Assembly (NCBI GenBank): GCA_019244415.1
Contig: JAFASN010000112.1
Coordinates: 2,265 to 66,264, forward strand
Source of the DNA: Verrucomicrobiota bacterium
Lineage (GTDB): Bacteria > Verrucomicrobiota > Verrucomicrobiia > Chthoniobacterales > UBA10450
Direction of reading: 5' to 3'
Length of the DNA: 64,000 nucleotides
Position numbers and translations under genes: made by a program. Each line of letters begins with the position of its first letter. Position 1 is the stretch's first letter. The notes under the pieces were generated by a model. That model had not been told where the DNA came from. It saw only the letters and a program-made list of their open reading frames with translations, and made no database searches. This document shows, piece by piece, positions 4,214 through 50,621 of the stretch.

Positions 4214-5965
4214 TTGAACCGGGTGAAAACGGTCTGGCGTGTCTTTGCTTACCTTAAGCGTTATCCGTGGCTTGCCTGCGGCACGCTGGCCTGCGCCGTC
4301 GTCAGCACCCTCATGGTCATTGTTTTTCCCGCGGTCACGAAAGGCATTCTCGGCGATGTGATCGAGCGGCATCATCCCGAGCATTTGCTCCCGCTGCTGG
4401 TTCTCGGCGGCGCAGCCATTTTTCTGCAAAACGGCCTCAATGCGCTGCGTCTTTTGCTCAACAACACGTTCGAGCAAAAAGTGATCTTCGATCTGCGCAG
4501 CGACCTGTACTCACATATTCAAACCCTGCCGCTGCGCTGGTTCGATCATCGCGCCACGGGCGATTTGATGACACGTATTCTCGAAGACGTGAGCTCGGTC
4601 GAGCGCGTACTTATTGATGGCATCGAGCAGGGCACGGTGGCGATTTTGCAGGTACTCATCGTCATCGGCGGAATGTTTTACCTCAGTCCGAAGCTGGCGC
4701 TTGCCGCGCTCGCCCCGGTGCCGCTGATGGCTGGCGGCGCGCTCTGGTACACGCTCACGGCACATCGGCGCTACCGGCTGCAACGGCGCGCGGCCTCGGC
4801 CATGAATTCACTCTTGCACGATAACCTTTCCGGCATTCGCCAGATCAAAAGTTTCGTGCGCGAGCGCGAGGAGCATGCGCGCTTCAACCGCGCCAGCAAC
4901 GATCTGCGACATGCCACGCTGGTGGTGATGAAAGTGTGGGCAATGTACAGCCCGTCCATGTACTTATTCGGGTCGCTTGGCCTGCTCCTGGCAGCGGCCG
5001 TCGGCGCCAGCGGCATTCTTAACGGAACGCTCCAGCTCGGAGACACCGCCGCTTTTCTTGTGCTCTCCGGATTCCTTTACGAACCGGTGGGCAAACTGCA
5101 TTCGCTTAACCAACTCGTGCAAGCCGGGCGTGCAGCCGGGGAGCGCGTGTTCGAAATTCTTGATTCGCCGGGCGAACCGGACGGCGGCCGTACTTTTTCA
5201 GCGCGTGTGCGCGGCGAGATCGAGTTTCGCCACGTGAGCTTCAGCTACGGGGACGAGTTGCCGGCGCTGACCGATGTGTCTTTCCATGTGCGGCCGGGCG
5301 AAACCATCGCCCTCGTAGGAAAAACCGGAGCGGGAAAATCGACCTTGATCAATCTGCTGACGCGTTTCTACGAGCTGAATCGCGGCGAAATTTTGATCGA
5401 TGGCGAACCAATTCGCGACATGAGCATCCCGGCTTTGCGCGAGCAAATCGGGATGGTAACGCAGGAAAGTTTTCTCTTTAACGGCACCATCCGCGAAAAC
5501 CTGCTGATGGGAAAACCAAATGCGAGCGACGCAGCGCTGCTCGAAGCAGCCGAAGCGGCGAACGCGCGCGATTTCATCGATCGGCTACCGAAAGGTTTGA
5601 GCAGCGTGGTGGGCGAACGCGGAGTTAAGCTAAGCGTGGGCGAAAAGCAGCGGCTCTCGATTGCGCGCGCGCTTTTGAAGGATCCGCCCATTCTCGTACT
5701 TGATGAGGCGACCGCCAGCGTCGATACCGCGACGGAGCGGCTGATCCAGGAAGCGCTCGAGAATCTAATGTTCGACCGCACCTCGATCGTGATTGCGCAC
5801 CGGCTTTCGACCATTGTGCATGCCGATCAGATTCTGGTGCTTGATCATGGCCGAATCATCGAGCGCGGTACGCACGAGCAACTGCTTGCGCTCGGTGGAA
5901 AGTACGCGCGCCTTTGTGAGCAAAGCCTGCTGGAAACGCCGGACGCAGAAGCGGCGGTTTTGTAG
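4214..5965 (+). CDS. ABC transporter, fused permease/ATPase (MsbA-like exporter)
   Basis: N-terminal six-helix TMD, Walker A GKTGAGKST, signature LSVGEKQR, Walker B ILVLDEATAS. Confidence 0.9.
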   Translation: MNRVKTVWRVFAYLKRYPWLACGTLACAVVSTLMVIVFPAVTKGILGDVIERHHPEHLLPLLVLGGAAIFLQNGLNALRLLLNNTFEQKVIFDLRSDLYSHIQTLPLRWFDHRATGDLMTRILEDVSSVERVLIDGIEQGTVAILQVLIVIGGMFYLSPKLALAALAPVPLMAGGALWYTLTAHRRYRLQRRAASAMNSLLHDNLSGIRQIKSFVREREEHARFNRASNDLRHATLVVMKVWAMYSPSMYLFGSLGLLLAAAVGASGILNGTLQLGDTAAFLVLSGFLYEPVGKLHSLNQLVQAGRAAGERVFEILDSPGEPDGGRTFSARVRGEIEFRHVSFSYGDELPALTDVSFHVRPGETIALVGKTGAGKSTLINLLTRFYELNRGEILIDGEPIRDMSIPALREQIGMVTQESFLFNGTIRENLLMGKPNASDAALLEAAEAANARDFIDRLPKGLSSVVGERGVKLSVGEKQRLSIARALLKDPPILVLDEATASVDTATERLIQEALENLMFDRTSIVIAHRLSTIVHADQILVLDHGRIIERGTHEQLLALGGKYARLCEQSLLETPDAEAAVL

Positions 5966-6021
5966 GCGCGTCCGTGCCGCAAGCGCGATGCACGTGCGCC
6001 GAACGTGGCCCAAGGCGACAA

Positions 6022-6558
6022 CTAAATGGTTTCGGAGGGCGAAACGGCGAGCAACTCCTCGTACCGCTCTTCCAGTTCGCGGTAGCGCGCTTCCGCGTCT
6101 CGCAGGGCGCGGCGTTCTTCGCGCAAACTGCGCTCGAGATCGCGGATGCGTTCCTCAAAATTAATGGCCATGCGCGTGGCGGCCGGCGTCTCGCCAGATT
6201 CTTCATCGTGGTTGGTCTTCGCTGACGAGAAAAACGACTCGATCTCCGCAATGCGCTGGCGCGAGCCGTTGCACGCGTTAATGACGAAGTGCTCGGGCGT
6301 AATTTCGCCGGCCTGCACAAACTCGTGGATCGCGCCCAGCGTGGTCGGTCCGTAATAGCGCTCAGTCGTTACCTCGACCAGCCAATCCATGCCCAGCTCA
6401 GCCAGCATGGGCGCTTTCATCCACGTTTCCTGGTCCGGTGAGACGAGGTCCTGTGGCGCAATGCGCGCCGTTGCCGCCCATTGCACAAGCTGCGCGAACG
6501 GCAGCGGACCGAAGAGTGTTCTGTCCTCGTGTTTACAAAGATACCAGCTCGCGTCCAT
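6022..6558 (-). CDS. GYF_2-like domain protein with C-terminal coiled coil
   Basis: WYLCKHEDRTLFGPLPFAQLVQWAATARIAPQDLV and a second YYGPTTLGAIHEFVQAGEITPEHFV repeat, then a charged ELEERYEELL tail. Immediately downstream of the LysM gene on the same strand. Confidence 0.5.
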   Translation of the reverse strand: MDASWYLCKHEDRTLFGPLPFAQLVQWAATARIAPQDLVSPDQETWMKAPMLAELGMDWLVEVTTERYYGPTTLGAIHEFVQAGEITPEHFVINACNGSRQRIAEIESFFSSAKTNHDEESGETPAATRMAINFEERIRDLERSLREERRALRDAEARYRELEERYEELLAVSPSETI

Positions 6559-6560
6559 CG

Positions 6561-7019
6561 CTACTCCGCGGGCGAAGGCGACGGCGAAGTACTCGGGGAG
6601 GCGGACGGCGCCGGCGGCGGAATCATGACAGTCTGGCCAGCTTGTAATTTCCGGCCGTCCTCGATGTGGTTAAACTTTTGCAGTTCTTCCACGCCGACCT
6701 TGTACTGCTTCGCGATGGAAGTGAGTGTTTCGCCGCGAGCGACGACGTGAGTGTTCCCGCCGGGGTGCGCAGGTTCAGCGCTCGCCACCGGCATCGCGCT
6801 CGGCGCAGGCGTCGCTTCGCCGACCATGACGCCTGGTTTTGTCATTTGTTGCTCGATTTTCAGGAGCTGTTGCGAAAGCGCGTCAAGCTTGCCGTTAATC
6901 TCATCGATCTTCGTCGTGAGCGCGTCCATCTGCGATGGCGCGGGCGAATTCTCCGGCGCCTGGGCAAACGTCGTTGCGGCGCAAAGAATCGCCGCGAGCA
7001 GGGCCGGAAGGAATTTCAT
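6561..7019 (-). CDS. secreted LysM peptidoglycan-binding protein
   Basis: Signal peptide MKFLPALLAAILCAATTFAQA, coiled segment, and C-terminal LysM HVVARGETLTSIAKQYKVGVEELQKFNHIEDGRKLQAGQTVMIP. Start moved to the Met before the signal peptide. Confidence 0.8.
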   Translation of the reverse strand: MKFLPALLAAILCAATTFAQAPENSPAPSQMDALTTKIDEINGKLDALSQQLLKIEQQMTKPGVMVGEATPAPSAMPVASAEPAHPGGNTHVVARGETLTSIAKQYKVGVEELQKFNHIEDGRKLQAGQTVMIPPPAPSASPSTSPSPSPAE

Positions 7020-7116
7020 CGCGGCAATCTTGGCACCGCCCGCACGGGCTGGCAAGACATCGCGCAGAGCGCTCGCTCCTTGCGCGAAGCGACATTCGCG
7101 TTACACTTTTTTGCTG

Positions 7117-7293
7117 ATGCCGGAGCGCATTCAAAAGCCGGTGGAACCGGCGCCGTGGGGGCCGAAACAGGGAGACGGCGATGGGCCGCGCTCGCCTGAT
7201 ATTTCGCGGCCTGACACGAAGGACTTGCTGGAAAAGATGCGCAAAGTCGATCCGAACCAATCGAAACGTTACCGGCAGCGAACTGGGCAATAA
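7117..7293 (+). CDS. UBact / Pup-like prokaryotic ubiquitin-like modifier (58 aa, C-terminal Gln)
   Basis: MPERIQKPVEPAPWGPKQGDGDGPRSPDISRPDTKDLLEKMRKVDPNQSKRYRQRTGQ. Low-complexity N-half, then a conserved DLL.KMRKVDPNQ.KRYRQRTG[QE] end as I recall for UBact. Its stop overlaps the proteasome beta start (TAATG). Confidence 0.75.
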   Translation: MPERIQKPVEPAPWGPKQGDGDGPRSPDISRPDTKDLLEKMRKVDPNQSKRYRQRTGQ

Positions 7294-8111
7294 TGGAGCC
7301 TGCCGGTGTGCAGCCGCTCGAATCGGGCGTGAGCGGCGCAACTGATTTCCCTTCGCTGCTCCGGCGCAACGGTCTGCTCCGAGCGCCCATTGAAACAAAC
7401 GTCACGAAAGTACGGGACGCCGCGATATTGCCGACGCAGGCGACAACAATTCTCGCCTTCAAATTCGCCGACGGCGTACTTGTTGCCGGAGATCGTCGCG
7501 CCACCGCCGGCAACACCGTGGTTTACGATCGCGCGGACAAGGTGCTCGAGATCGACGAGCATTCGATCATGGCCATTGCTGGTGTGCCGGCGACTGCGTG
7601 GGAGATGGCGCGCGTACTCGAGCATTCGTTTCAATTTTTTCGCCGCACGCAGCTCCAGGAAATGAGTGTGGACGGCAAAGTACGAGCCCTTTCGAAACTA
7701 TTGCGGGACAATCTCGGTTTCGTCATGCAGGGAGTCGGTGTCGTCGTGCCGATCTTCGCCACGTTCGACGCCAAAGCATCCCCCTCAGCGCGGCTTTATT
7801 TCTACGACGCCATGGGCGCGCAATTCGAGGCGGCTGATTTCGCCGCCACTGGCTCCGGCTCGCCGGCCGTGCGCGGAATTCTTTACTACGAAAATACCTG
7901 GGGCAAAAAGCCGCTCCACAAAATCGGCGAAGACGAGGCGGTCGTAGTGGCATTGCGCGCGCTCGACACCGCCTCCGAAGCTGACACCGCGACGGGCGGA
8001 ATCGACCGGCACGCGCGCATTTTTCCGATGATGAAGACGGTTTCCGCTGACGGGATCAAGACGCTGCCAGAAGAACGGATCGCGGAACTTTTCCACAAGC
8101 GCGTCGCATGA
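7293..8111 (+). CDS. prcB: 20S proteasome beta subunit (Ntn hydrolase with propeptide)
   Basis: Propeptide followed by TTILAFKFADGVLVAGDRRATAGN (Thr1 nucleophile context, compare actinobacterial PrcB TTIVAL..GDRR). ATGA overlap with the next gene. Confidence 0.85.
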   Translation: MEPAGVQPLESGVSGATDFPSLLRRNGLLRAPIETNVTKVRDAAILPTQATTILAFKFADGVLVAGDRRATAGNTVVYDRADKVLEIDEHSIMAIAGVPATAWEMARVLEHSFQFFRRTQLQEMSVDGKVRALSKLLRDNLGFVMQGVGVVVPIFATFDAKASPSARLYFYDAMGAQFEAADFAATGSGSPAVRGILYYENTWGKKPLHKIGEDEAVVVALRALDTASEADTATGGIDRHARIFPMMKTVSADGIKTLPEERIAELFHKRVA

Positions 8112-8866
8112 TCGAAGAGCCGTATCGCTGGGTGGAAGCGATCGCCACGCGGCGCGATTACGTCGAGACGCAGCTTTCCTCGGGCAGTCCCATCATCGCG
8201 CTAACTTTTGCTGATGGCATTCTGTTGTTCACGGTGGGTCAGCAAAAGCTTTTCGAGATTTACGATCGCATTGCCCTCGGCGCGATCGGTCACCCCGGCG
8301 ACATCGAGCGGCTGCGCATGGCCGCGATCGAACTGGCGAGTACGGAAGGATTCGCGCGCTCGGCCGCGGATGTCTCGCTGCGGCGGCTGGCGTACTATTC
8401 GCTCAGTCCAGTAATGAAAAATGCGTTCGAGCAAATCTACGGCGCGCCCTTTCTGGCGCGGTTGTTGTTCGCCGAAATCGGAGCGACGCCGGCGGAGGAT
8501 TTATTTTTGCGAGTGGAGTACGACGGCGCAATCAGCCAGAAGAAAAGCGGTAACAAAAGATTCGCGGTACTCGCGCCGACAAAAAAATCCGCTGAGCAGA
8601 TGGAGCAATTTCTCGAGCGCGAAGATCACGGTGACGAAGACATGACCGCCGCACTCGAGCTTGCCTTTGACGCGTGGGCGGCCGGCCAAAAACAAGCTGA
8701 GGAAGGCGCTGTTTTGCCCGGTCGGGAGGAGATTCGCGCCTGCCGCCGCGAGCGGCTGGGGGACGGCATCATGGAAGCCGTTGTGCTTGAGCGCCGGGCG
8801 CGCTCGCCTGTGCAATATCGCACCGTCGAACAAAAACAGCTCGCCGCATTAAGCGAGCAGGTGTGA
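8108..8866 (+). CDS. prcA: 20S proteasome alpha subunit
   Basis: SPIIALTFADGILLFTV, KLFEIYDRIALGAIGHPGD and LFLRVEYDGAI align by eye with actinobacterial PrcA (ELYDRVGFAAAG, LYRITYDGSI). Confidence 0.8.
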   Translation: MIEEPYRWVEAIATRRDYVETQLSSGSPIIALTFADGILLFTVGQQKLFEIYDRIALGAIGHPGDIERLRMAAIELASTEGFARSAADVSLRRLAYYSLSPVMKNAFEQIYGAPFLARLLFAEIGATPAEDLFLRVEYDGAISQKKSGNKRFAVLAPTKKSAEQMEQFLEREDHGDEDMTAALELAFDAWAAGQKQAEEGAVLPGREEIRACRRERLGDGIMEAVVLERRARSPVQYRTVEQKQLAALSEQV

Positions 8867-9648
8867 TGAAGCGGCGAGGCGGGCCCGGGGTTCTGAATGC
8901 GCTCGCCTGGCTCGGACTTGCACTGCTCACCGCATCATTTCTCGTACTCACTTTGCAGCCGCCGCGGCAGATTCCGCGAGGCGCGATGCAGCAGCGGGTA
9001 CGTGAGCCGTTCGCTGTTGTCGTCATCGACCCAGGGCACGGCGGCGCTGATTCCGGCGCGATGGCGGGCAACATTCTGGAAAAAGATCTGACGCTCGATA
9101 TCGCGCATCGGCTCGAGCAGCGGCTTGCGTCTGAAGGCGTGGCCACAGTCATGACCCGTGTGGGAGATTCGTATGTGGCGCTGGCCGAACGCGCAGCGTT
9201 GGCGAACCGCGCGAACGACGCTGTCTTTATCAGCATTCACGTTAACGACGGTTCACGCGCACTGGCCACCGGAGTCGAGACGTACTTTGCCGCGCAACAA
9301 AACACACCGGCGACGCGGCTGGCCAGTTGGCTGCCGTTTCTGCAGAAGGTTTCCCAACAGGCGCCAAACGTGCAGAGTCAAAGTCTGGCTGGGTTCATCC
9401 AGCAGGCGCTTGTCACTCAGACACACGCCACTAACCGCGGCACGAAAGCAGAGCAGTTTTATGTCCTCGCTAATGTGCGCCATCCGGCGGTGCTGGTGGA
9501 AACCGGTTTTCTCACCAACAAAGACGAAGCGGACAAATTATGTGACGCCAATTATCGCGAGCAAATCGCGCAGGCGATCAGCTCCGGCGTACTAAAATAT
9601 CGCGAGGCGCTGCGGGGGCAGCGGGCTATTGAAGGTGGCTCTGAATAA
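8863..9648 (+). CDS. N-acetylmuramoyl-L-alanine amidase (Amidase_3 type), membrane anchored
   Basis: N-terminal TM helix, VVVIDPGHGGADSGA, VFISIHVN, ETGFLTNKDEADKL. The start overlaps the prcA stop. Confidence 0.85.
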   Translation: MMKRRGGPGVLNALAWLGLALLTASFLVLTLQPPRQIPRGAMQQRVREPFAVVVIDPGHGGADSGAMAGNILEKDLTLDIAHRLEQRLASEGVATVMTRVGDSYVALAERAALANRANDAVFISIHVNDGSRALATGVETYFAAQQNTPATRLASWLPFLQKVSQQAPNVQSQSLAGFIQQALVTQTHATNRGTKAEQFYVLANVRHPAVLVETGFLTNKDEADKLCDANYREQIAQAISSGVLKYREALRGQRAIEGGSE

Positions 9649-9682
9649 GGCGAAATTCCGGGGCGTCCAAGTAGGCACAGCG

Positions 9683-10414
9683 ATGAGATGGAAATTCGCC
9701 ATTTTGCTGATGGTATCGGCGCAGCTCGCGTGGGCCGATGCGACCATCCAGCAGGCGCAGGAAGCACTGAAAGCGCAGGGCTATTATTATGGCCAGATTA
9801 CCGGAGAGAAAAATGCCGATACCGCTGCGGCCATCCGGCGCTTCCAGATTCGCAATGGCTTGCAGGTCACAGGCGAGCTGAACGACGAAACTTTGCGCGC
9901 GCTGAATTCAGACTCCGCTGTGGCGGTCGCCACCGCAACACCTGCCTCGGCAGAGCCGCGCACCGGGCAATCTGTCCAGCCGGAGCAGCGTAGCGATGAT
10001 TTGCGCGACGAAATTCCGCCACAACCGCCAGCGACAGCGCCTCGGATCGCGCGACCCTTGGATGACAGCTTCGCGCAGCCGCCGCCGGGCAATGCTGGTG
10101 GCGTATTTGCCCAGACACCGTACTCGACCGCACCGGCGCAATTGCAGCGCGAGATCCTTGCTGAGGTGGAGACTAGTTTGCGGCGTCGCGGTTTATACCA
10201 AGGCGCGACCGATGGCCTCTACGGCCCTGAACTGCAAGTTGCCCTGCGTAATTATCAGTCGCGCATCGGTCTTCCCCCGACCGGGCGGCTCGACATGGAG
10301 ACGCTCGCTTCACTCGGTTTGTTGCCGGGACAACATGGACCACGTGCGCCGCGTCGCTGGTTCGGGCCAAGGCCGATGCAAGAGCCGCCGGTCCGAGGCG
10401 AGTGGATCCATTAA
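9683..10414 (+). CDS. secreted protein with two PG_binding_1-type peptidoglycan-binding domains
   Basis: Signal peptide MRWKFAILLMVSAQLAWA. LKAQGYYYGQITGEKNADTAAAIRRFQIRNGLQVTGELNDETLRAL and LRRRGLYQGATDGLYGPELQVALRNYQSRIGLPPTGRLDMETL are separated by a Pro-rich linker. Confidence 0.75.
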   Translation: MRWKFAILLMVSAQLAWADATIQQAQEALKAQGYYYGQITGEKNADTAAAIRRFQIRNGLQVTGELNDETLRALNSDSAVAVATATPASAEPRTGQSVQPEQRSDDLRDEIPPQPPATAPRIARPLDDSFAQPPPGNAGGVFAQTPYSTAPAQLQREILAEVETSLRRRGLYQGATDGLYGPELQVALRNYQSRIGLPPTGRLDMETLASLGLLPGQHGPRAPRRWFGPRPMQEPPVRGEWIH

Positions 10415-10417
10415 CGC

Positions 10418-11224
10418 TTACTTGAAACGCGCTGACTGCAATTCAGCGGTGACGGTGCCGATGAAAATCTGGCCGTCGATGCGCAGCAGCAAACGATTGT
10501 CATCATCGGAAATCCAGATCGTGGCCCGGCGGAATTTCCGGTGCGGTTGCAGTTCATTGTTTTTGCCGATCCGCTGCAGGCGCAGATCGAGCTTGATGGC
10601 GTTGTAACTGCCGGCGTGCACGCGGATGTGATCGCGCCCAGTCACGGTGACGGTCGCGACGTAAGCCGCGTCAGCGGGATAAACAGCGACGCGATAGCTG
10701 CTGCCATCATGCAGCGGCTGACTGCGCAAATAAAGCAGAACAGACTGAAGATCGTTCAGCGGCTCGAGTTTAAAGTCCTTTGTACTCGTCTTCGGCGGGC
10801 TGCCCTCAACCCGTGTCCGGCTCACGCCGTCTTCGGAAAAGCGAAGGTGCGTTTCCTTTCTCCTTCCCCGGACGGTTTCGATCTGCTGCGCTTCGATCGG
10901 TCGCAATGTCTGCGCGTCAACCACTGATCGATAATCCACATCGTAATGCCAAAGTACACGAGCAAGGCCGACGGTCCCGCCATGTCCTTCCAGGACGAAG
11001 GTGGCGCCATTCCGGTGAAAGTAGATCTCCGCTGTGGCCGCGGTAATGCCGCTCCAGCCGAAGCTGTATGTGGCGCGCACCGGACGCAGGTCCGGGAAAT
11101 TGCCGCGTGGTTCTCGAGCGAGGGTCGCTTTCCAATCGCCACTGCCGCGCGCCGAGTGACCCAGGAGAATAACAACGCCTGCGGTCAGCGCCGCGGCGAT
11201 GGGGCGTAATCGCGGCCTTGTCAC
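10418..11224 (-). CDS. DUF3108-like secreted protein
   Basis: Signal sequence, ATYSFGWSGITAATAEIYF and overall beta-rich pattern. Family assignment is from memory only. Confidence 0.5.
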   Translation of the reverse strand: MTRPRLRPIAAALTAGVVILLGHSARGSGDWKATLAREPRGNFPDLRPVRATYSFGWSGITAATAEIYFHRNGATFVLEGHGGTVGLARVLWHYDVDYRSVVDAQTLRPIEAQQIETVRGRRKETHLRFSEDGVSRTRVEGSPPKTSTKDFKLEPLNDLQSVLLYLRSQPLHDGSSYRVAVYPADAAYVATVTVTGRDHIRVHAGSYNAIKLDLRLQRIGKNNELQPHRKFRRATIWISDDDNRLLLRIDGQIFIGTVTAELQSARFK

Positions 11225-11282
11225 AAAAGCAAAAACGCACGCAACACTGCGGCTGCGTGCGTTCGCAAAAGCAGAAGGCCGG

Positions 11283-11966
11283 TTACGGTTTCCGCGGCGA
11301 AGCGGAAGGCGCCGGTGAGCTCAATTTTAATCCAGTCGCGGGCGAGTGCGTCGCGGGGGCGATCGGCGGAAGTGTTGTGTCTGTACTTAGGGTGCTGACG
11401 CGGCCCGGCTTGTTCAACGCGGCGATGACGTCGTTAGTGAAATCGTAGTTGTCGCGCGAGTACATGACGAGCGGAACGCCATTGAGACTCATGCCCGATT
11501 TATCGAACACCAGATCCATGCTCTGGCTCTTTACGCGCTCCATCACGATATCGGTAATTTCCTTGACGATGCCTTCGCGCATGCGCATGGCCTGCTCCTG
11601 CAACTGCCGCTCGCGCGTTTGCCGGAACTCGGTGATCTCGCGCTCCATGTTTTTCACATTATTGATCTTGTCGTCGCGATCCTTGGCCGTCTGCGTCTTT
11701 TTGTCTGGGCTGAGCGCGGGTGAATCGAGCTGTTTGTTGAGCGCGTTCACTTCCTCGAGCGCTTTCTTGTAAGCGTCAGCGCGATCATCAAACTCCTTCT
11801 TGGCCGAATCACGCGCGGCGTTGATTTTGGCCTCCGCTTCCTTGGTTTTGCTGTACTCCTTGAAGGCGCGGTTCATGTCCACGGTGCCGATCTTGAGAGA
11901 TTGCGCTGAGGCAGCGAGCGGTAGCGTGATGGCGGCGCCGAGCGCGAGTGAGAGAAGCTTCTTCAT
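11283..11966 (-). CDS. skp: OmpH/Skp family periplasmic chaperone
   Basis: MKKLLSLALGAAITLPLAASAQ signal, LKIGTVDMNRAFKEYSKTKEAEAKI, long charged coiled region. Directly downstream of bamA. Confidence 0.8.
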   Translation of the reverse strand: MKKLLSLALGAAITLPLAASAQSLKIGTVDMNRAFKEYSKTKEAEAKINAARDSAKKEFDDRADAYKKALEEVNALNKQLDSPALSPDKKTQTAKDRDDKINNVKNMEREITEFRQTRERQLQEQAMRMREGIVKEITDIVMERVKSQSMDLVFDKSGMSLNGVPLVMYSRDNYDFTNDVIAALNKPGRVSTLSTDTTLPPIAPATHSPATGLKLSSPAPSASPRKP

Positions 11967-12013
11967 AACAATGGTGGGATAAGTGGCGTTAGACTGTAGG
12001 TGGGTGATGGTGT

Positions 12014-14356
12014 TCAAAATTGATAACCGACACTGAAATTAAACTTGCCCCGGCGTGGATTATTATCCTTCTGAATCGGGTAGCCATAATCCACGCGTAA
12101 TGGGCCGATCGGCAAGTCGAGGCGTATGCCGATTCCGGCGTCAGAAGCAAGGTTCGCCGCGGTAAAGTCATACGCGCCACTCTCGACGAAGCCAGTGTCG
12201 TAGAAAACAGCGAATCGTGCTTTGTCCACGATCGGGAACGTGTACTCAACCGTGGCGCGTGCCAGCGTCTGCCCGCCAAGCGGTTCACCCTGTACATCCT
12301 TCGGACCAACGTCGCGAAAATCGAATCCGCGCAGGTTGTTAGAGCCGCCGAGAAAGAGTCGATCGTAAATGCGCACCCGATCGCCATTGCCCCACGCATC
12401 AACCGTGGCGAGCTCGCCATCGATCAACAAAATCCCGTCCCACGGCAGGTGAAAATATTTCGTTCCCTGCAAGTCGAACCCATAAATTTGCTCGTTGCCG
12501 CCAAGCGGCCCGCCCGAGACGTAGGCCGTGAGGGAAATGCGCTCGCCGTGGCGCGTGAGGAAGGGATTGTCGCGCCGGTCGTAAACGAGTTCACCAGTGA
12601 TCTGGCTTTTCGTCGAGCTGCCAGCCTCCGCCGCGATTTCCGGTGAGACGCCGTTGGCAACGTTATAGATGTCGATGTCTTCGAAGCGGTACTCAAGGGT
12701 GCCGTAGGTGAATGGGAACAATCCTTTCCGCAGCGCGACGGATAGCCCGTAGTTCCGCTGGTCATACACTTGGCTGAGGTAATCGGCATCGTGATAAAAG
12801 AGCTGCCCACTGAGCGCGAGCGGCCGGTCCAGGAACCATGGCTCGGTGATGCCGATCTCAGCGTCTCGGCGCAAGCTGCCGGCCTGTAAACGAATGCGGA
12901 ACCTTTCTCCGCCACCGGTGAAGCTTGGCCAGTTGGTGATATCGAAATTGCTCTGGGTCAGCTCCACGAAGCCGACGATGCTATCGATGGTACTAAAGCC
13001 GGCGCCGAAATTGAGCGAGCCGGTGCGCTTTTCCTCCACTTGTACTTGCAGGTCCTTGCGCCCCTCCACCCCGGTATCGACCGGATACGTTTCCACCTTT
13101 GAAAAGTACCCGAGGTTCTCCAGGCGTTTCTTGCTCGTCTCCACGCGCACGGTGTTGAAGACATCACCGGGCGCGATGAGCACCTCGCGCCGGATCACTT
13201 TGTCTTTCGTGCGCGTGTTACCGACGATGTTGATGCGTTCAACAAACGAGCGGTCGCCCTCCTGGATCTGGTACGTCACATCGATCACGCCGCCGCGTGA
13301 GGGCGCGCTTTGCGGGATGACGTCTGATTCCACGTAGCCGCCCGTGCCATAAGCATCAGCGATCGCTTTCGCGTCATCGCGGATCGCCTTGGGCGAGTAA
13401 ACATCGCCTTCTTTTACTTTGAGCAAGGCCCGAATCTTCTGCTCCGTCGCCGCCTTATATCCGGTCACGGCGATTTTCCCCACGTGGTACTGCGTGCCTT
13501 CATCGACCACGATGACGATGTGTAATTTCCCGCTGGTCGTGCGTTCCTTGCGCACGTCGCGCACAGCCATGTCAATGTAGCCGTGGTTCTGGTAAAACTC
13601 GCGCACCTTTCCTAAATCCTGCTGGAGCTGTGCTTCATCCAGCCGCCCTGATTTATCGATGAAGGCGATGATATCCTTTTTCTTCGTCTTCATTTGCTTG
13701 CGCAAAATCTTCGCCGGGAAATGGGCGTTGCCCTCGAATTCCACCAGGCTGATCGCCCCACGCACGCCTTCATTGATGGTGTAAACCACGCGAGACGTCG
13801 CCCGCTTTGCATCCACCGGCTCGACCCGGAACGTCACCTGGACATCGGTAAAGCCGCGCCCCTGGTAAGTATCGAAAATTTTCTGGCGCCCTTTCTCCAG
13901 GTCCTCTTCTTTCACTGGCGCATTCAGTTTCACGCCGAGGTTTTTGCGCAGCTTCCTTGGGCTGATGCGCGTCGCGCCATCGATCTCGATCTCGGTCAAA
14001 AGCGAGCGCGTCTGGATCGCGACGATGACCCGCATGCCATCACTCTCCGGCTGGCCGAACACGCGCACATTCTCGAAGTCCCCCGTGTCGTAAAGCCGGC
14101 GGATGTCTTCCTCGGCCACGATCTCTGAGTACGGCTGGCCTATTTTCGTTCGCAATTGCGCCAGCACACGTTCGCGACTGATCGTCACCGGGCCGATGTA
14201 CTGGACATCGATTCTGCGCACGATCGGCGGTCCCTGGGGCGCCGGCTGCTCCATGTCTGGCGGTGGCGATTGCGCGCGTAACCCGGCCGCGGCGACTGTA
14301 CTCAGCAGCACAAGCAGCGCGAGCGTGCAGCGGCGGCGGAGCGAGTCATAAAGCAT
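12014..14356 (-). CDS. bamA: outer membrane protein assembly factor BamA
   Basis: 780 aa with repeated POTRA-like units (IRRIDVQYIGP.., ISLVEFEGN.., VERINIVGNTRTKDKVIRRE) and a C-terminal beta-barrel ending FNFSVGYQF. Confidence 0.9.
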   Translation of the reverse strand: MLYDSLRRRCTLALLVLLSTVAAAGLRAQSPPPDMEQPAPQGPPIVRRIDVQYIGPVTISRERVLAQLRTKIGQPYSEIVAEEDIRRLYDTGDFENVRVFGQPESDGMRVIVAIQTRSLLTEIEIDGATRISPRKLRKNLGVKLNAPVKEEDLEKGRQKIFDTYQGRGFTDVQVTFRVEPVDAKRATSRVVYTINEGVRGAISLVEFEGNAHFPAKILRKQMKTKKKDIIAFIDKSGRLDEAQLQQDLGKVREFYQNHGYIDMAVRDVRKERTTSGKLHIVIVVDEGTQYHVGKIAVTGYKAATEQKIRALLKVKEGDVYSPKAIRDDAKAIADAYGTGGYVESDVIPQSAPSRGGVIDVTYQIQEGDRSFVERINIVGNTRTKDKVIRREVLIAPGDVFNTVRVETSKKRLENLGYFSKVETYPVDTGVEGRKDLQVQVEEKRTGSLNFGAGFSTIDSIVGFVELTQSNFDITNWPSFTGGGERFRIRLQAGSLRRDAEIGITEPWFLDRPLALSGQLFYHDADYLSQVYDQRNYGLSVALRKGLFPFTYGTLEYRFEDIDIYNVANGVSPEIAAEAGSSTKSQITGELVYDRRDNPFLTRHGERISLTAYVSGGPLGGNEQIYGFDLQGTKYFHLPWDGILLIDGELATVDAWGNGDRVRIYDRLFLGGSNNLRGFDFRDVGPKDVQGEPLGGQTLARATVEYTFPIVDKARFAVFYDTGFVESGAYDFTAANLASDAGIGIRLDLPIGPLRVDYGYPIQKDNNPRRGKFNFSVGYQF

Positions 14357-45130: not shown

Positions 45131-46254
45131 AAAACCCGAAGATTTTAATATTCAAGCTCGGTCTGCTCGGAGATGTCATCATGACTACGCCCTTCGTCCG
45201 GCAACTTCGCAGCATTTGTCCCAGGAGCGAAATCCAGTACTGGACATCGAGGGAATTCGCCGCGCCTCTTGTAGGTAATCCTCACCTTTCGCGCGTTCTC
45301 GGCTTCGACTCGGCCCCGTTTTACCGTAAAGATGTCGCTGGTGCGTTACGGCTGCGGCAGCGGCTACGCTCTGAAGTTTTCGACATAGGATTCTTTCTAG
45401 GCAAGCACTGGTTCTTTAACGCTTTCGCTGCTTCGTTAGGCATACCGCGGCGCATAGGCTTCGCGCGCGAGCCAATCAGTCGCTGGTTCCTAACGGATAG
45501 TGTTGCCTACCGCGAGCTGCGACACGAAATTCATTACTACCTGGATTTACTCAACTTCGTCGGTGAACCCGATCGATCGGATATAGCTATGGAAGTAGCT
45601 ACTTCGAAGGAATGCGAGACGAGGGCAAACTCGTTGATGGAGCAGTTCCGGCTCGACGGATTTATCGGCGTAATCAACAGCGGCGGTAACAATGCCGGCG
45701 AGAGCGGTTTCGTTCGCCGGCTGCCTTCAGATTTCTTTGTCCAGCTCGTGCGCAACCTGGCGCAACGCACGAAAGTCGTTCTTTTTGGTAACACCGTCGA
45801 TGGTGAGTACTACGGGGCATTCTCGTTCCCCCGCGAAGTGATAAACCTGGCGGGCCGCCTATCCTTTCACGAGAGCCTCGCCCTGATGAGACGAGCTAAC
45901 CGCATGTTTACGACGGACTGTGGTGGAATGCACATGGCTGGAGTAGTAAACCGAAACATCACGGCCTTTTTTGGGCCGGCGCATCCCGCGCGGAAGGCAC
46001 CCCTCCTCGGTAACGTAGAGATCGTCTGGCCTGATCGCGATAAGTACGATGCGAAGTACGATCTCTACAACCTGCCACCGGCCGAACCGCTATTTCAGGA
46101 GATTAAGATACGGCGGACTTCAGGTGCGGGACGGATGCATGCAGGTGGGCAGGCAAGCGTTTGCCTGACACGAAATCGAAAGTCCCGGACGGGAGGAGAC
46201 AGCATCAGCTCTCCGGTACAGCTCGGAGCAAGTGAGCGCATCTTGTCTTGGTAA
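45127..46254 (+). CDS. GT9 family glycosyltransferase (heptosyltransferase-like)
   Basis: KILIFKLGLLGDVIMTTPFVRQLR, GINSGGNNAGESG, TTDCGGMHMAG. The last about 50 codons lack recognisable features and overlap the convergent flippase gene. Confidence 0.8.
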   Translation: MKNPKILIFKLGLLGDVIMTTPFVRQLRSICPRSEIQYWTSREFAAPLVGNPHLSRVLGFDSAPFYRKDVAGALRLRQRLRSEVFDIGFFLGKHWFFNAFAASLGIPRRIGFAREPISRWFLTDSVAYRELRHEIHYYLDLLNFVGEPDRSDIAMEVATSKECETRANSLMEQFRLDGFIGVINSGGNNAGESGFVRRLPSDFFVQLVRNLAQRTKVVLFGNTVDGEYYGAFSFPREVINLAGRLSFHESLALMRRANRMFTTDCGGMHMAGVVNRNITAFFGPAHPARKAPLLGNVEIVWPDRDKYDAKYDLYNLPPAEPLFQEIKIRRTSGAGRMHAGGQASVCLTRNRKSRTGGDSISSPVQLGASERILSW

Positions 46255-47543
46255 AGTTGCTTACGGATAGCAATAACAACGGGCAGGTAAAGAAACGTTG
46301 CCGCGGCGAGGGAAATCATTGTTCCTTTCAACCCGTATAGGGGTTCAAGAAGGAACGTCCCAGCAATGCCGAATGTCAGTTCGGCAATGCCACAGCGCGC
46401 GACGACGCCGCCAGCCCCGAGTGATAAGCCAGTGTAACTCAGGAATCGACTAGCCGCGATCGAGAATCCCACCGCGGCGATACACATTCCGGTGAGGACG
46501 CCGAACGGCGCCGGTGCTTTTAGCCACAAGGTGAAAAACAGGGGTGCTGCCGCAACAATGATCAGCGCGCATGGCACCGTACACACCAGAGCGCATCTCA
46601 GAATTGAGTAGAAGACGGACGCGCGTTCTTCCGCGCTGCGAGACGCTGGCAGCGCCACAAGCGCGACGTCGAACGAAACAGCGCCCAGCGCGCTGATGAT
46701 CTCCGCCATGCGCAGGCAAATAAAGAACGTTCCCGCGACTGTGACGCTGCCGACGCTTGCGAGGACGAAGGTGATTGCGTGTGTTTTCGCTGCCCAGGTC
46801 ACGTTCGACACAGTGAAGCTGAAAGTATCGCGATAAGTCAGGCACAGTTTCGCGGTCGTAATCTCACGCAGTCGAAGGAGCGGCCGAAGCTCATCAAAGC
46901 GCAAGAGAGCGACACCCAGTGCAGTTACAAGTAAAGCGCCAATCCAACCCGCGACGACCGCGGTCACGCTGGCTCCCCGCCACAAAAGAACCGCTGCAAC
47001 GAGTGATGCAGCCATCCACCCGAGCGCATTCGCGAGCTTGACCAAACCAATGTGCCCGCGAGCCACGCAGGGCTCGAGCGCTATGGTCACGAACATGTAG
47101 GGCAGGGTGAGCGTTGTTACGACAAAGATTATGTTTTCGTGCGGGCGATCGATTCCAAAGACAGCGCTCCAGATGTGTAAGCTCGTGCAAAGGGCTACGA
47201 GTACCAGGGCAACGAGACAAAGTGCGGCGAAAGCTACAAGAGCATGGGATAGGAGCGACGCCGAGGCAGCGTTATCACTGACGACTTTGGACAAAGCGAC
47301 GCGGGTGCGGCCACGAAGGCCAAGATCAGCTAACGACAACAAGACAAAAGCGGAGCTGGCCAGCGCGAACTCGCCGTAACCTTCCGGACCCCAATTATGC
47401 AGCATCCATGGCGTGAGGCCTATCATGAAGATCGCTTTGGCGATGAATGCGATTGTCTCCCAAAGCTGGTTCGAGAATAGTTGCCGGTGAAGAGTTGGTC
47501 GCTTTTGAGCCAGCATGGCTGAGTTCGCTATCGTGCGATCCAT
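46095..47543 (-). CDS. Wzx-like oligosaccharide flippase (MOP superfamily)
   Basis: 482 aa and about 12 TM helices, with an N-terminal WETIAFIAKAIFMIGLTPWMLHNWGPEGYGEFALASS pattern typical of polysaccharide biosynthesis flippases. Confidence 0.7.
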   Translation of the reverse strand: MDRTIANSAMLAQKRPTLHRQLFSNQLWETIAFIAKAIFMIGLTPWMLHNWGPEGYGEFALASSAFVLLSLADLGLRGRTRVALSKVVSDNAASASLLSHALVAFAALCLVALVLVALCTSLHIWSAVFGIDRPHENIIFVVTTLTLPYMFVTIALEPCVARGHIGLVKLANALGWMAASLVAAVLLWRGASVTAVVAGWIGALLVTALGVALLRFDELRPLLRLREITTAKLCLTYRDTFSFTVSNVTWAAKTHAITFVLASVGSVTVAGTFFICLRMAEIISALGAVSFDVALVALPASRSAEERASVFYSILRCALVCTVPCALIIVAAAPLFFTLWLKAPAPFGVLTGMCIAAVGFSIAASRFLSYTGLSLGAGGVVARCGIAELTFGIAGTFLLEPLYGLKGTMISLAAATFLYLPVVIAIRKQLYQDKMRSLAPSCTGELMLSPPVRDFRFRVRQTLACPPACIRPAPEVRRILIS

Positions 47544-47549
47544 TAGGAT

Positions 47550-49235
47550 CTAGCGGTAATGCATGGTAGGCAGCTGAAGTTCGGTTAGGCCTTCGACCTT
47601 GACGAACAACGTATTCGGGTACTTCGCTTCCAATGTTTCCACCTGATCTTTGCTTATTCGCAGCGGAGTCATGATGACCGGGCGGTTCGCCAGGAATGGA
47701 TCGTTGCGACGCAAATCCGCCGAGTACCAGGCGAGAGTTGGATCGAAAATGAGAAGACTGGCGTTGACGTGGTGGAACGCTTCCGCTGCATCGGCATACG
47801 GGCGGACAAACGTTTCCGCCTGAAACGCACGCAACGGTAGTTGCAGCAACAACGACGCGAGCACGCCACCAGTAATCAAGCTGGTGGCAGTGTCCCGTCC
47901 GGCCCTAGCTTTAACGACGTCCCAGCCAACAACAGCTAACAGGATGAGACAACCAAGTTCGCCGTGAAAATAGCGATCTCCCCAACCGTGACTCTGATCC
48001 TGGCGAACAAAGACGTAAAACCCAAATGTCAGCAGACAACTCGCAGCGGCGCAACGAATGATCGGTGTCTGGCGCTTGAGCGCGCCGAAGCCGAACGGAG
48101 TTAGAATAAGCAGCGGGAAAGCAAGCCAGCCCACGAGTAGGAAGAAGTAGATCGACTGGATGAGCCAGGTAAGACGATGAACACGAAAGGCACTCGGAGA
48201 GGAGCCGCCAACAAAACCCGGGAGAAAGGTTCGCCACCAAATGATCCAGACAGCAATGCCAATGAAATACACGACGGCAAAAAAAACGCTCGCGAACCAG
48301 CGCCGGTCCCAGACGAGCTTGAGAAGAAAAGGCAGGACGAAAAGCGCATGAAAGAAAGGTTGATGCAAACCCAGGGCGGCAACCCCGACGAACGGAGTTA
48401 GCCAGAAACGGCGTTTTTCCGGCGCAAGGTAAAGCCACAGCCAGAGTAGATTCAGGGCGAGATGCGCGGGCATCGCGTACGATGTCATAGACATCAGTAG
48501 GAATTGTGATGAGGTGGCAAGCAGCGCTGCGGCGAGGATTGGTTTCCAGGTAGAAGCGGGCCAGAGTTTGCCCGCAATTGCTGCCATGAGAGCAATGCTT
48601 AGCGCAGCTAATGCCGGATTCGTCAGCCATTCCGAATCGAAAGACATGAACAGGGCTCGAATAAGAGAATAGACGGGCAGGTACTCAGACGCCCAGCTAT
48701 GCGTCGCTGGATTGTAACTTGTGTAAGTGGGCTTGATCAGGTGCACAAAGGGCTGCCAAGCCGGCGGAACCGGCGCGCTCAGTTGGCCGCTTAGAAAAAT
48801 GCGCGCCTGAAAATCAGGCATATTTTCATCCGCAGTGAGGGCATATTGATGAAATACCAACGACGTCCCCAGTGCGGTGATGCCGAAGGTAAGGCAGACG
48901 AGAGTGATAAGTACGAGGCGGGGCTTTATTTGCGTGAGACGTAAGGGCGCGGGGCGGCCGATTGCCACCCAGACTAATGTAGCGGCAGCAAGTGCAAGCA
49001 CCACGAGGAGTCCGGCGAACTCATTTCTGGCGAAGAGAACAAAGAAGGCGTTGTACCAGTCGCGAGGGTCAGGATGGCTGATCCACTGGGTGCGAAGCCA
49101 GAGGCACAGAACAATTCCGCCGGTGGCCACACCGATAATGCCGCACAGGATTACTGCCAGGCTTCGGCACGGTCGCCCGCCGTCTACCTTCGGCGATGTA
49201 GCACGCTGAAGAGCATTGGGGTTTAGTTGGGACAT
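47550..49235 (-). CDS. polytopic membrane protein, GT-C-like glycosyltransferase candidate
   Basis: 561 aa with many TM helices, an acidic first-loop motif LTADENMPDFQARIF, and a soluble C-terminal region. Confidence 0.5.
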   Translation of the reverse strand: MSQLNPNALQRATSPKVDGGRPCRSLAVILCGIIGVATGGIVLCLWLRTQWISHPDPRDWYNAFFVLFARNEFAGLLVVLALAAATLVWVAIGRPAPLRLTQIKPRLVLITLVCLTFGITALGTSLVFHQYALTADENMPDFQARIFLSGQLSAPVPPAWQPFVHLIKPTYTSYNPATHSWASEYLPVYSLIRALFMSFDSEWLTNPALAALSIALMAAIAGKLWPASTWKPILAAALLATSSQFLLMSMTSYAMPAHLALNLLWLWLYLAPEKRRFWLTPFVGVAALGLHQPFFHALFVLPFLLKLVWDRRWFASVFFAVVYFIGIAVWIIWWRTFLPGFVGGSSPSAFRVHRLTWLIQSIYFFLLVGWLAFPLLILTPFGFGALKRQTPIIRCAAASCLLTFGFYVFVRQDQSHGWGDRYFHGELGCLILLAVVGWDVVKARAGRDTATSLITGGVLASLLLQLPLRAFQAETFVRPYADAAEAFHHVNASLLIFDPTLAWYSADLRRNDPFLANRPVIMTPLRISKDQVETLEAKYPNTLFVKVEGLTELQLPTMHYR

Positions 49236-49346: not shown

Positions 49347-50621
49347 ATGGAATTCGCTCCGGTAGGGACGCTCGGCGCCGCGCCTCTAGCGGCGAACCCG
49401 GGGGTGGCTACGTCGAAGAGCCGCGCTTCTAGATTCAGCACAGCGGCCTCGCGAGTTCTTCTTTTCCTTCTGGTACTCTTCATCGGGATTGTGGTGAGAG
49501 TTTACTGCTCGAGCGGATTCCGCGGCGTCGGATTCGACGAGCATGCCTACACCGTTTTCCTCACTGAAATCGAAAAAAGCGGCGCACTGAACTACGACCT
49601 GGTTATGCGCGTTTGCCTTGAACGACAGCAGCGTACGGCCGACGCAATCGTCCCAGCGACACGAGTAGGCTTTCTTCTGCCGGCATATGCCGTTGCGGAG
49701 GTGTTCCAAGTGTCACCATTCGTCGCGCTGCGATATCTGAATTGCGGGGCAGCGATACTCACGCTGCTGATAACGTTGGCTTTTAGTTACCGCGCACTCG
49801 GGATGGGAGCGATGCTAGGAATAGGATGCCTGATGGCTACTTCTCCCCTAGCTATTCACTTGAGCCAAAGAGCTCTGGTCGATGGTTACTTTAGTTTATG
49901 GGCAACGACAGCAGTATGGCTGGCGTGGGAAAATCTTCGTTGCCCTCGACACCTGGGCTGGCTTGCAGCCTATTTTGCCAGCCTTGTACTTCTCGTACTC
50001 ACAAAGGAAAGCGCCGCCTTTGTCGTGGTCGGTTTGTGTGCTGTTCTACTGTGGTATGGTCTCCAGGGCTGTTGCCCGTGGCGTTTGTGGGTCGCTACAA
50101 TGGCTGGCCCAGTAGTTGCGATTGCCGTCCTGGCGACATTGACGGGCGGAATAACTAAACTGGTGCAGTTCTACTACGTGTTCGAGAGCAAGTCCGGGCA
50201 CAATATCTATTCCGTCATGGCACAGGATGGTCCGTGGTACCGTTACCTGATTGATTTCATATTACTATCGCCGCTAATCACGACATTTGCTTTAGGGGCT
50301 ATCTTCCATCTACGACGATCGGTCGACACCGCTCTTGCCATATTCCTTGGGGCGAGCTTCGTCGTGATGTCGGCGGTGAGCCATGGAATGAGTCTGCGCT
50401 ATGCGGCCTACTGGGAGTTACCGTTGTGCTGGCTGGCCTTTTTGCAGGTGGAACTACTTGCGGAAAAAGTACGGCGGAATTGGCGACCGTTCGCCATAGC
50501 CGGAATGGTCGTGTTGCTGAGCGCAACTAATCTTTGGCAGTACCAGCGTCTTTTTGTAGCTGGTGAGATATACGATCCTATATCGTTCCAGCTTGCTCGC
50601 GCTACTCACCTTATAAAGTAA
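49347..50621 (+). CDS. GT-C fold (ArnT/PMT-like) membrane glycosyltransferase
   Basis: Polytopic. First-loop motif FRGVGFDEHAYTVFLTEI resembles the GT39/ArnT DE motif. Confidence 0.6.
   Translation: MEFAPVGTLGAAPLAANPGVATSKSRASRFSTAASRVLLFLLVLFIGIVVRVYCSSGFRGVGFDEHAYTVFLTEIEKSGALNYDLVMRVCLERQQRTADAIVPATRVGFLLPAYAVAEVFQVSPFVALRYLNCGAAILTLLITLAFSYRALGMGAMLGIGCLMATSPLAIHLSQRALVDGYFSLWATTAVWLAWENLRCPRHLGWLAAYFASLVLLVLTKESAAFVVVGLCAVLLWYGLQGCCPWRLWVATMAGPVVAIAVLATLTGGITKLVQFYYVFESKSGHNIYSVMAQDGPWYRYLIDFILLSPLITTFALGAIFHLRRSVDTALAIFLGASFVVMSAVSHGMSLRYAAYWELPLCWLAFLQVELLAEKVRRNWRPFAIAGMVVLLSATNLWQYQRLFVAGEIYDPISFQLARATHLIK

Follow-up and report, generated by a model that had tools for sequence, protein, structure and literature searches.

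Gene chain at the UBact-proteasome locus

We examined a stretch of 64,000 nucleotides from a Verrucomicrobiota bacterium of the order Chthoniobacterales (contig JAFASN010000112.1); this whole stretch is called the window here, and positions are counted from its first letter. The subject is a chain of five genes on its + strand, in which the genes for the ubiquitin-like tag UBact and for the two subunits of a 20S proteasome are followed directly by two genes for peptidoglycan-related proteins. The UBact gene (7117-7293) encodes a tag of 58 aa (PF20513, E=1.4e-22; NF033388, 82.9 bits) and lies directly 5' of prcB (7293-8111; overlap 7291-7295), which encodes the beta subunit PrcB (PF00227, E=2.6e-28; TIGR03690, E=1.3e-50). 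The alpha subunit, PrcA, is encoded at 8108-8866 and matched TIGR03691 (E=2.4e-20), with a weak Pfam match. Next comes a gene for an N-acetylmuramoyl-L-alanine amidase of the Amidase_3 family (8866-9648, with an alternative GTG start at 8863; PF01520, E=7.7e-52, 176 bits). The last gene encodes a protein with two PG_binding_1 domains and a Pro-rich linker between them (9683-10414; PF01471, E=7e-29).

The junctions between these genes are very tight. UBact and prcB meet in the motif TAATG, where the stop codon TAA (7291-7293) shares a base with the prcB ATG at 7293. At the prcB/prcA junction (ATGA), the prcB TGA at 8109-8111 is overlapped by the prcA ATG at 8108, and at the prcA/amidase junction (GTGATG) the prcA TGA occupies 8864-8866 and the amidase ATG begins at 8866. 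The amidase and PG_binding_1 genes are spaced by 34 nt. The original prediction of five + strand genes chained by overlaps is thus borne out, both by the Pfam and NCBIfam matches and by the junctions as read from the sequence. All five reading frames are intact and conserved among relatives. No Shine-Dalgarno-like sequence was seen 5' of any of the five genes.

When the region 6000-11500 was scanned with a sigma-70 consensus, no promoter-like site was found on the + strand, which is a weak test as this consensus may not fit Verrucomicrobia. An equally weak consensus scan gave no terminator-like site at the 8866 or 9648 junctions. The GC content (GC) and the GC content at third codon positions (GC3) are even throughout the conserved block around the chain; a recent horizontal transfer of the cassette was considered and rejected, since both values match those of the neighbouring genes.

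The window PrcB corresponds to NCBI protein MBV9009872.1, from a Verrucomicrobia metagenome-assembled genome (MAG), and its close homologues are labelled Chthoniobacterales, Spartobacteria or Candidatus (Ca.) Udaeobacter.

UBact and the proteasome subunits

UBact scored well above the curated cutoffs of both models (79.6 vs 27.8 bits for PF20513, and 82.9 vs 35 bits for NF033388, an equivalog model). The window protein ends in RYRQRTGQ, and its relatives end in RTGQ or RTGE, mostly with Q. We observed that the last 30 residues are as conserved as in the lineages that encode the deamidase Dop, the ligase PafA and the AAA unfoldase Mpa next to UBact. As the tag ends in Gln, it needs to be deamidated before ligation.

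PrcB carries a propeptide of 50 residues, and T51, D67 and K83, which correspond to Thr1, Asp17 and Lys33, are invariant in alignments A2 (19 sequences) and A3 (7 sequences). The protein reached 99.4 bits with PF00227 (cutoff 22.4) and 172.2 bits with TIGR03690, under the equivalog cutoff of 191.9 of that model, which was apparently trained mainly on Actinobacteria. PrcB is also better conserved than BamA, which is encoded close by (median identity 75% vs 60%). The scores of PrcA were under the cutoffs (17.3 vs 22.4 bits for PF00227, and 73 vs 139 for TIGR03691); the protein is 35-47% identical to the gene product at the PrcA position of canonical loci.

Cell-wall proteins of the locus

The amidase has a basic and hydrophobic N-terminus (MKRRGG...LAWLGLALLTASFLVL). 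Residues H58, E72, H125 and E212 are invariant in alignment A1, and from what is known of the family we take the first three to be the Zn-binding His/Glu/His and E212 to be the catalytic Glu. The enzyme also carries a conserved insert of 45 residues (approximately aa 142-186). The AmiA structure 8C2O aligns through this insert (query 50-182) and the AmiC structure 4BIN covers residues 46-245 in a single stretch, while the alignments with the constitutively active domains 5EMI and 4RN7 pass over the insert. With the NCBIfam equivalog models the amidase stayed under the cutoffs (CwlD was the best, with 134 vs 221.6 bits, and AmiA gave 101 vs 400). By analogy with these enzymes, the window amidase may be membrane-anchored and periplasmic, and may depend on an activator.

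The PG_binding_1 protein scored 100.2 bits with PF01471 (cutoff 23) in two stretches and has a signal-like N-terminus (MRWKFAILLMVSAQLAWA). On the other side of the chain, divergent from UBact, lies a gene for a LysM protein (6561-7019, - strand; PF01476, E=2e-12), which also begins with a signal-like sequence (MKFLPALLAAILCAATTFA). Judging from these N-termini, the PG_binding_1 and LysM proteins are probably secreted.

Conservation of the gene order

To place the arrangement among its relatives, the PrcB alignment A3 was searched against one genome per GTDB species, which yielded 80 loci. These were classed by tblastn using seeds from the window together with the Pfam-verified Mpa, Dop and PafA of Ca. 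Nitrospira defluvii. Among Chthoniobacterales, about 24 genomes at species level, Ca. Udaeobacter included, had the five-gene chain, which was also present in several long metagenome contigs. The common form of the locus, which we refer to as the core block, has an ABC transporter gene (+), the GYF and LysM genes (-), UBact-PrcB-PrcA-amidase-PG_binding_1 (+) and DUF3108-Skp-BamA (-). In the 20 core Chthoniobacterales loci (a number that counts three long metagenome contigs), UBact-PrcB-PrcA-amidase was found in every case, as was a LysM gene adjoining UBact, and the PG_binding_1 gene was found in 18. The core loci include contigs of 0.2-3.6 Mb from independent assemblies, and the same order was seen in more than 25 assemblies.

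Four further loci of the clade (L024, L027, L028 and L075) are divergent, and have no ABC transporter, DUF3108, Skp or BamA gene within reach. L028 retains the GYF and LysM genes, and L024 and L027 have the LysM gene directly 5' of UBact and in the same orientation. All four still have prcA followed by the amidase gene, the PG_binding_1 gene or both (each of these two genes being present in 3/4). As the divergent loci keep peptidoglycan genes beside PrcA without the BamA flank, the association with cell-wall genes is older than the BamA neighbourhood. The original prediction had allowed that the amidase linkage might be missing from related genomes; it is instead kept in 20/20 core loci and in 3/4 divergent ones.

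Between prcA and the amidase gene the distance measures -4 nt in the window and mostly 1-60 nt in the other loci; of the 23 loci retaining the amidase, 20 have no more than 60 nt. The gap is longer in L018 (167 nt) and L015 (221 nt), and in L021 a gene for a 215-aa secreted protein has been inserted between the two on the opposite strand (L021:3441-4088, -). Promoter and terminator scans of the longer gaps in L015 and L021 gave nothing usable. In L024 the amidase position is taken by approximately 670 bp without an open reading frame (ORF) (L024:11596-12264), and the PG_binding_1 gene is retained. The loss of the amidase in L024 and the opposite-strand insertion in L021 indicate that co-transcription is not obligatory. 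The link of the amidase to the proteasome genes is therefore an old one, but not an obligatory one.

Outside this clade, approximately 50 loci were compared, from Nitrospira, Latescibacterota, Poribacteria, Nitrospinota, Gemmatimonadota, Armatimonadota, other Verrucomicrobiia and Actinomycetes. Not one carries an amidase gene, and most have the order Mpa-Dop-tag-PrcB-PrcA-PafA, which in Armatimonadota was found in one genome. Loci missing one or two of the partners were also seen among these lineages (L074, L076, L078, L081 and L082). That the proteasome-amidase linkage is unusual, as had been suggested, agrees with its absence from every other UBact or Pup lineage sampled.

Two loci from MAGs labelled Verrucomicrobiaceae and Prosthecobacter (L026:170-2720 and L025:9734-11533) encode a PrcB that is 65-67% identical to that of the window. 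In L026, genes for a TauE exporter and a Bax-inhibitor-like protein (Pfam) come directly after UBact-PrcB, and in L025 an ORF of 255 aa follows PrcB. The stretches of L025 and L026 examined contained no PrcA, amidase, Dop, PafA or Mpa, and both loci look like a tag with a beta subunit that has no alpha subunit nearby. For locus L088, the UvrA of the window was compared with that of L088 in order to place it; at 34% identity the two are probably paralogs, and the comparison was uninformative.

Location of Dop, PafA and Mpa

No partner of the proteasome was detected around the chain. A Pfam search of the non-overlapped ORFs of the window (approximately 300 aa or more) gave no protein of the Pup_ligase family and no Mpa-type AAA protein, and no protein with a Prot_ATP_ID_OB or AAA domain was found in the window. 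With lineage-matched Dop, PafA and Mpa seeds, tblastn of the window at E<=10 returned only chance matches, the best having E=0.01 over 71 aa. The source contig (ENA ERZ27313809, k141_122029; 85,916 bp) has its left end 2.3 kb from the window, and none of the three genes was found in these 2.3 kb or in the approximately 8.6 kb to the right. The claim that Dop, PafA and Mpa are missing from the 64 kb therefore holds, and the concern raised with it, that they might lie just outside, was not borne out in these flanking stretches. The same was true of the relatives: in 20/20 core Chthoniobacterales loci none of the three lies within 10 kb, and over that distance Dop was absent from every Chthoniobacterales-type locus. 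The position of PafA, 3' of prcA, is occupied by the Amidase_3 gene.

We observed that Dop occurs elsewhere in the clade. Using the Dop of L039, the nearest canonical relative, we found a Dop clade whose members share about 60% identity with the query and 70-89% among themselves. Two of the lone Dops, P0487 (HEY1583507.1) and P0493 (MBA3544508.1), are named as Chthoniobacterales by NCBI, and a lone Dop was found in three MAGs labelled Chthoniobacterales; another member of the clade lies among sulfatase genes on a 659-kb contig. These proteins score as Dop (484-496 bits with TIGR03688, vs about 390 with the PafA model).

In L090:1-5963, L091:3-5636 and L092:1-3185, the lone Dop gene follows hypF-hypC-hypD-SIS-hypE on the same strand and precedes glgP, the gene for glycogen phosphorylase. 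P0487 and P0493 are encoded in this setting, by lone genes flanked by hypE and glgP.

A lone PafA was likewise found. Scanning metagenomes with a PafA alignment gave approximately 70 soil loci, all of one clade. Their proteins share 66-81% identity with the L166 PafA and about 40% with the lone Dops. L166 encodes PafA (5210-6586, +), a GYF protein (6696-7175, -), a LysM protein (7206-7679, -) and the first part of UBact (7796 to the contig end, +), and the closest counterpart of the GYF protein is the one in L028. The L166 PafA is 61-63% identical to the L047 clade, its nearest canonical relatives, and at most 55% identical to all others. L166 thus ties the lone-PafA clade to the Chthoniobacterales locus type, and L166:5210-7906 may be an intermediate between the canonical and the fully dispersed locus.

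A profile search with a verrucomicrobial PafA proved uninformative on Chthoniobacterales, as its best 120 proteins all belonged to other clades; P0329, P0328 and P0355 from this search sit in canonical or near-canonical loci. Beside the lone PafA there is usually a divergent gene of about 150 aa just upstream (L106-L176; for example L150:8889-9398, -). By eye it looked DUF5069-like, and we saw no link to the system. A copy that is 45-55% identical lies about 6 kb upstream of UBact in L022.

Mpa was met once in the clade, on L177, and no search was aimed at it. On this 433-kb contig, a gene for Mpa (Prot_ATP_ID_OB and AAA domains) lies directly before Dop (the pair at 8199-11527) and a transposase gene follows; no UBact, PrcBA or PafA was found downstream of Mpa-Dop on L177. 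The L177 Dop is 71-73% identical to the Dops labelled Chthoniobacterales. The absence of the partners from the window, as originally described, was thus confirmed, but the system being without partners is not what the lone Dop and PafA of the clade, and the Mpa beside Dop on L177, suggest. All proteasome components have been reported for Ca. Udaeobacter copiosus (Brewer et al. 2016, bioRxiv 10.1101/053942).

Flanking genes and the LysM-UBact spacer

The intergenic region between the divergent LysM and UBact genes (7020-7116) presumably holds promoters for both directions. The divergence agreed with the original prediction; the spacer measures 97 nt and not the 98 bp stated there. When this region was aligned over 22 loci, conserved boxes (CTGGCAAG and TG.CA.C) were seen 10-40 nt from the LysM start, and TTGC(C/G)TTT ... 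TA.. with a T-rich tract directly 5' of the UBact ATG. A consensus scan of 7020-7116 gave no sigma-70 match.

The conserved block comprises 11 genes, and its left edge is formed by a gene for an ABC transporter (4214-5965, +; ABC_membrane and ABC_tran in Pfam), which tblastn found upstream in 17/20 core loci (66-84% identity). Next to it is a gene for a cytoplasmic GYF_2-domain protein with a coiled coil (6022-6558, -; PF14237, E=1.2e-9), whose start overlaps the LysM stop in the window. The GYF_2 gene occurs in 13/20 core loci and also in L028 and L166. The right edge is convergent and consists of genes for a DUF3108 protein, Skp/OmpH and BamA (10418-14356, -; PF11306, PF03938, and POTRA with Omp85), found in 16-17 of the 20 core loci and missing from all four divergent loci.

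In most loci of the clade the GYF_2 gene is a neighbour of UBact, whose product carries a conserved Pro-rich motif, PAPWGPK. Pro-rich motifs are the ligands of eukaryotic GYF domains; that GYF_2 and UBact might interact through PAPWGPK is pure speculation. Far from the chain, beside glycosyltransferase genes, are three large ORFs of 482, 561 and 424 aa (46095-49235, -, and 49347-50621, +). They matched no Pfam family at E<=0.1 except for a faint Wzy_C match, and one of them weakly matched an NCBIfam model of a putative glycosyltransferase family.

Interpretation of the locus

We favour the reading that the window holds part of a lineage-specific, split UBact-proteasome, expressed from one transcript, with its partners encoded elsewhere and its wall products exported, and with a gene order that has been inherited without any required tie between the two functions. 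We give this reading a probability of approximately 0.6. The ancestral Mpa-Dop-UBact-PrcB-PrcA-PafA locus would have come apart in Chthoniobacterales, with UBact-prcB-prcA staying joined as a cassette that came to sit within a small peptidoglycan cluster (LysM on one side, Amidase_3 and PG_binding_1 on the other). A single transcript would run from the 97-nt LysM-UBact spacer through the PG_binding_1 gene, with coupled translation. The genes for Dop and PafA, which would deamidate UBact and ligate it to its substrates, would lie at other places in the genome, and so presumably would the gene for the Mpa that passes tagged proteins to the PrcAB core. The membrane-anchored amidase and the exported PG_binding_1 protein would act on the wall. 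The shared transcript would give co-expression, but we take the linkage itself to be an inherited gene order, in which direct mechanistic coupling would not be required. The conservation of the UBact C-terminus and its Gln end fit a dispersed but complete system.

Several points weigh against this. The promoter and terminator scans rely on a sigma-70 consensus that may be unfit for Verrucomicrobia, and the single transcript is a prediction. Dop, PafA and Mpa are likewise predictions for the genome of the window itself, in which none was found: the Dop link is through NCBI taxon labels, that of PafA through L166 and clade membership, and that of Mpa through clade membership alone. Export of the amidase and the PG_binding_1 protein was read solely from their N-terminal sequences. 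In addition, the adjacency of proteasome and peptidoglycan genes has survived at least four rearrangements of the flanks, which selection for co-expression would also produce.

The last point leads to the alternative that survives best, namely that the operon has been kept for its function, because the genes for regulated cytoplasmic proteolysis and for peptidoglycan cleavage have to be switched on jointly, either for nutrient recycling in starvation or in time with division. We regard this as possible, although on the unlikely side. In the starvation version, amino acids or peptides would be freed by the proteasome as well as by the amidase, to the benefit of an auxotrophic oligotroph, and amino-acid recycling is indeed a role proposed for the Ca. 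Udaeobacter proteasome (Brewer et al. 2016, bioRxiv 10.1101/053942). A functional link would also explain why the proteasome genes stand beside peptidoglycan genes clade-wide, even with all other flanks changed (L024, L027, L028 and L075), and why the spacing is tight in most loci; the putative AmiA/AmiC-type insert of the amidase is, moreover, typical of regulated division amidases. However, L024 has lost the amidase with the rest of the chain kept, prcA is parted from the amidase by an opposite-strand gene in L021 and by gaps of 167-221 nt in L015 and L018, and the association occurs in no other UBact or Pup lineage sampled. The products are also expected in different compartments, and we found no literature on such a link. 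The stronger claim, that a cell-envelope programme has drawn in the 20S proteasome, together with the amidase, the PG_binding_1 protein and the neighbouring LysM protein, and that joint control of proteolysis and peptidoglycan cleavage was selected as a functional module, appears unlikely to us.

We also considered that the system is partnerless or rewired, that is, that the core and UBact work without Mpa or with another activator or ligase, and that the lone Dop and PafA genes stem from different members of the order. Consistent with this, no Dop, PafA or Mpa was found across approximately 75 kb of the source contig, Mpa was met once in the clade (L177) and not in a genome shown to have the amidase-linked cassette, and some related loci are more reduced still (L025 and L026 with UBact-PrcB and no PrcA, L081 and L082 with PrcBA alone). 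Yet the C-terminal recognition and ligation region of UBact is constrained as in the canonical lineages, and its Q end requires a deamidase. Soil data are very rich in the lone Dop and PafA clades, as they are in this order, and L166 physically ties the lone-PafA clade to the locus type. We therefore think this explanation improbable. Finally, that the adjacency is an artefact, either an assembly chimera or the remnants of a decaying proteasome locus, can practically be dismissed: the window does come from a short-read metagenome assembly (its contig name is megahit-style), but misassembly was rejected as the arrangement recurs in more than 25 independent assemblies, some with contigs of 0.7-3.6 Mb, and the five frames are intact and conserved, with the catalytic residues of PrcB kept.

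If the favoured reading of a split, dispersed system is right, the scattering of the UBact-proteasome genes in Chthoniobacterales is a departure from the tight locus described so far, and searches based on gene neighbourhood would miss or misjudge such systems. Chthoniobacterales, notably Ca. Udaeobacter, are among the most abundant soil bacteria. They would offer a natural case in which to see how a multi-component degradation pathway is regulated after its genes have dispersed. The proteasome core and a peptidoglycan amidase appear to have shared an operon over long evolutionary time, and the linkage suggests the hypothesis that protein and wall turnover are co-regulated. If the linkage is merely historical, the locus is a useful catalogue entry and brings no new mechanism.

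Comparison with known systems

The UBact family was reportedly described by Lehmann et al. in 2017. The canonical UBact locus, as in Ca. Nitrospira defluvii (FP929003.1, L043), shares with the window the UBact family itself, the order UBact-prcB-prcA, the close spacing and the C-terminal RTG[QE]; the Nitrospira proteins are 48-58% (PrcB) and 35-47% (PrcA) identical to those of the window. In the canonical locus (approximately 45 loci), however, Mpa and Dop immediately precede the UBact-prcB-prcA genes and PafA immediately follows them, whereas the window has none of them within reach and has the amidase and the PG_binding_1 protein where PafA would be.

The Pup-proteasome of Mycobacterium tuberculosis follows the same logic: its tag is disordered and has a C-terminal Gln, and it works with a deamidase/depupylase, a ligase, an AAA unfoldase and a 20S core. 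In M. tuberculosis pafA and mpa lie several genes away from pup-prcBA, a precedent for partial dispersal. Pup and UBact are, however, separate families, actinobacterial PrcB is only 39-40% identical to that of the window, and none of the actinobacterial loci sampled has wall genes in the operon. It was stated earlier that the Pup gene invariably adjoins a gene of the PafA family (Iyer et al. 2008, PMC2588565), and the window locus contradicts this generalisation of a tag beside PafA.

Other Verrucomicrobiia and Armatimonadota likewise have loci without at least one of Mpa, Dop and PafA beside the core (L074, L076, L078, L088, L096, L081 and L082). This partial loss means that fragmentation is not unique to Chthoniobacterales. 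In contrast to the window, most of these fragmented loci retain a Pup_ligase-family gene beside PrcBA (L081 and L082 have PrcBA alone), and none has peptidoglycan genes.

The amidase shares with AmiA, AmiB and AmiC of E. coli (8C2O, 4BIN) the His/Glu/His/Glu residues, an N-terminal export or anchor sequence and an insert, of putative regulatory role, at the position of the auto-inhibitory helix. Unlike them, it has no AMIN domain and falls far below their NCBIfam cutoffs, and no gene for a LytM-type activator was found near it. To our knowledge, the genes for AmiA, AmiB and AmiC are not co-transcribed with a protease complex. In the literature searched, to which the original UBact paper did not belong, we found no description of a proteasome-amidase operon, and none joining prcA, prcB and an amidase. 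The components of the window locus (UBact, the bacterial 20S proteasome, Amidase_3 and PG_binding_1) all belong to known families, and it is their arrangement that differs.

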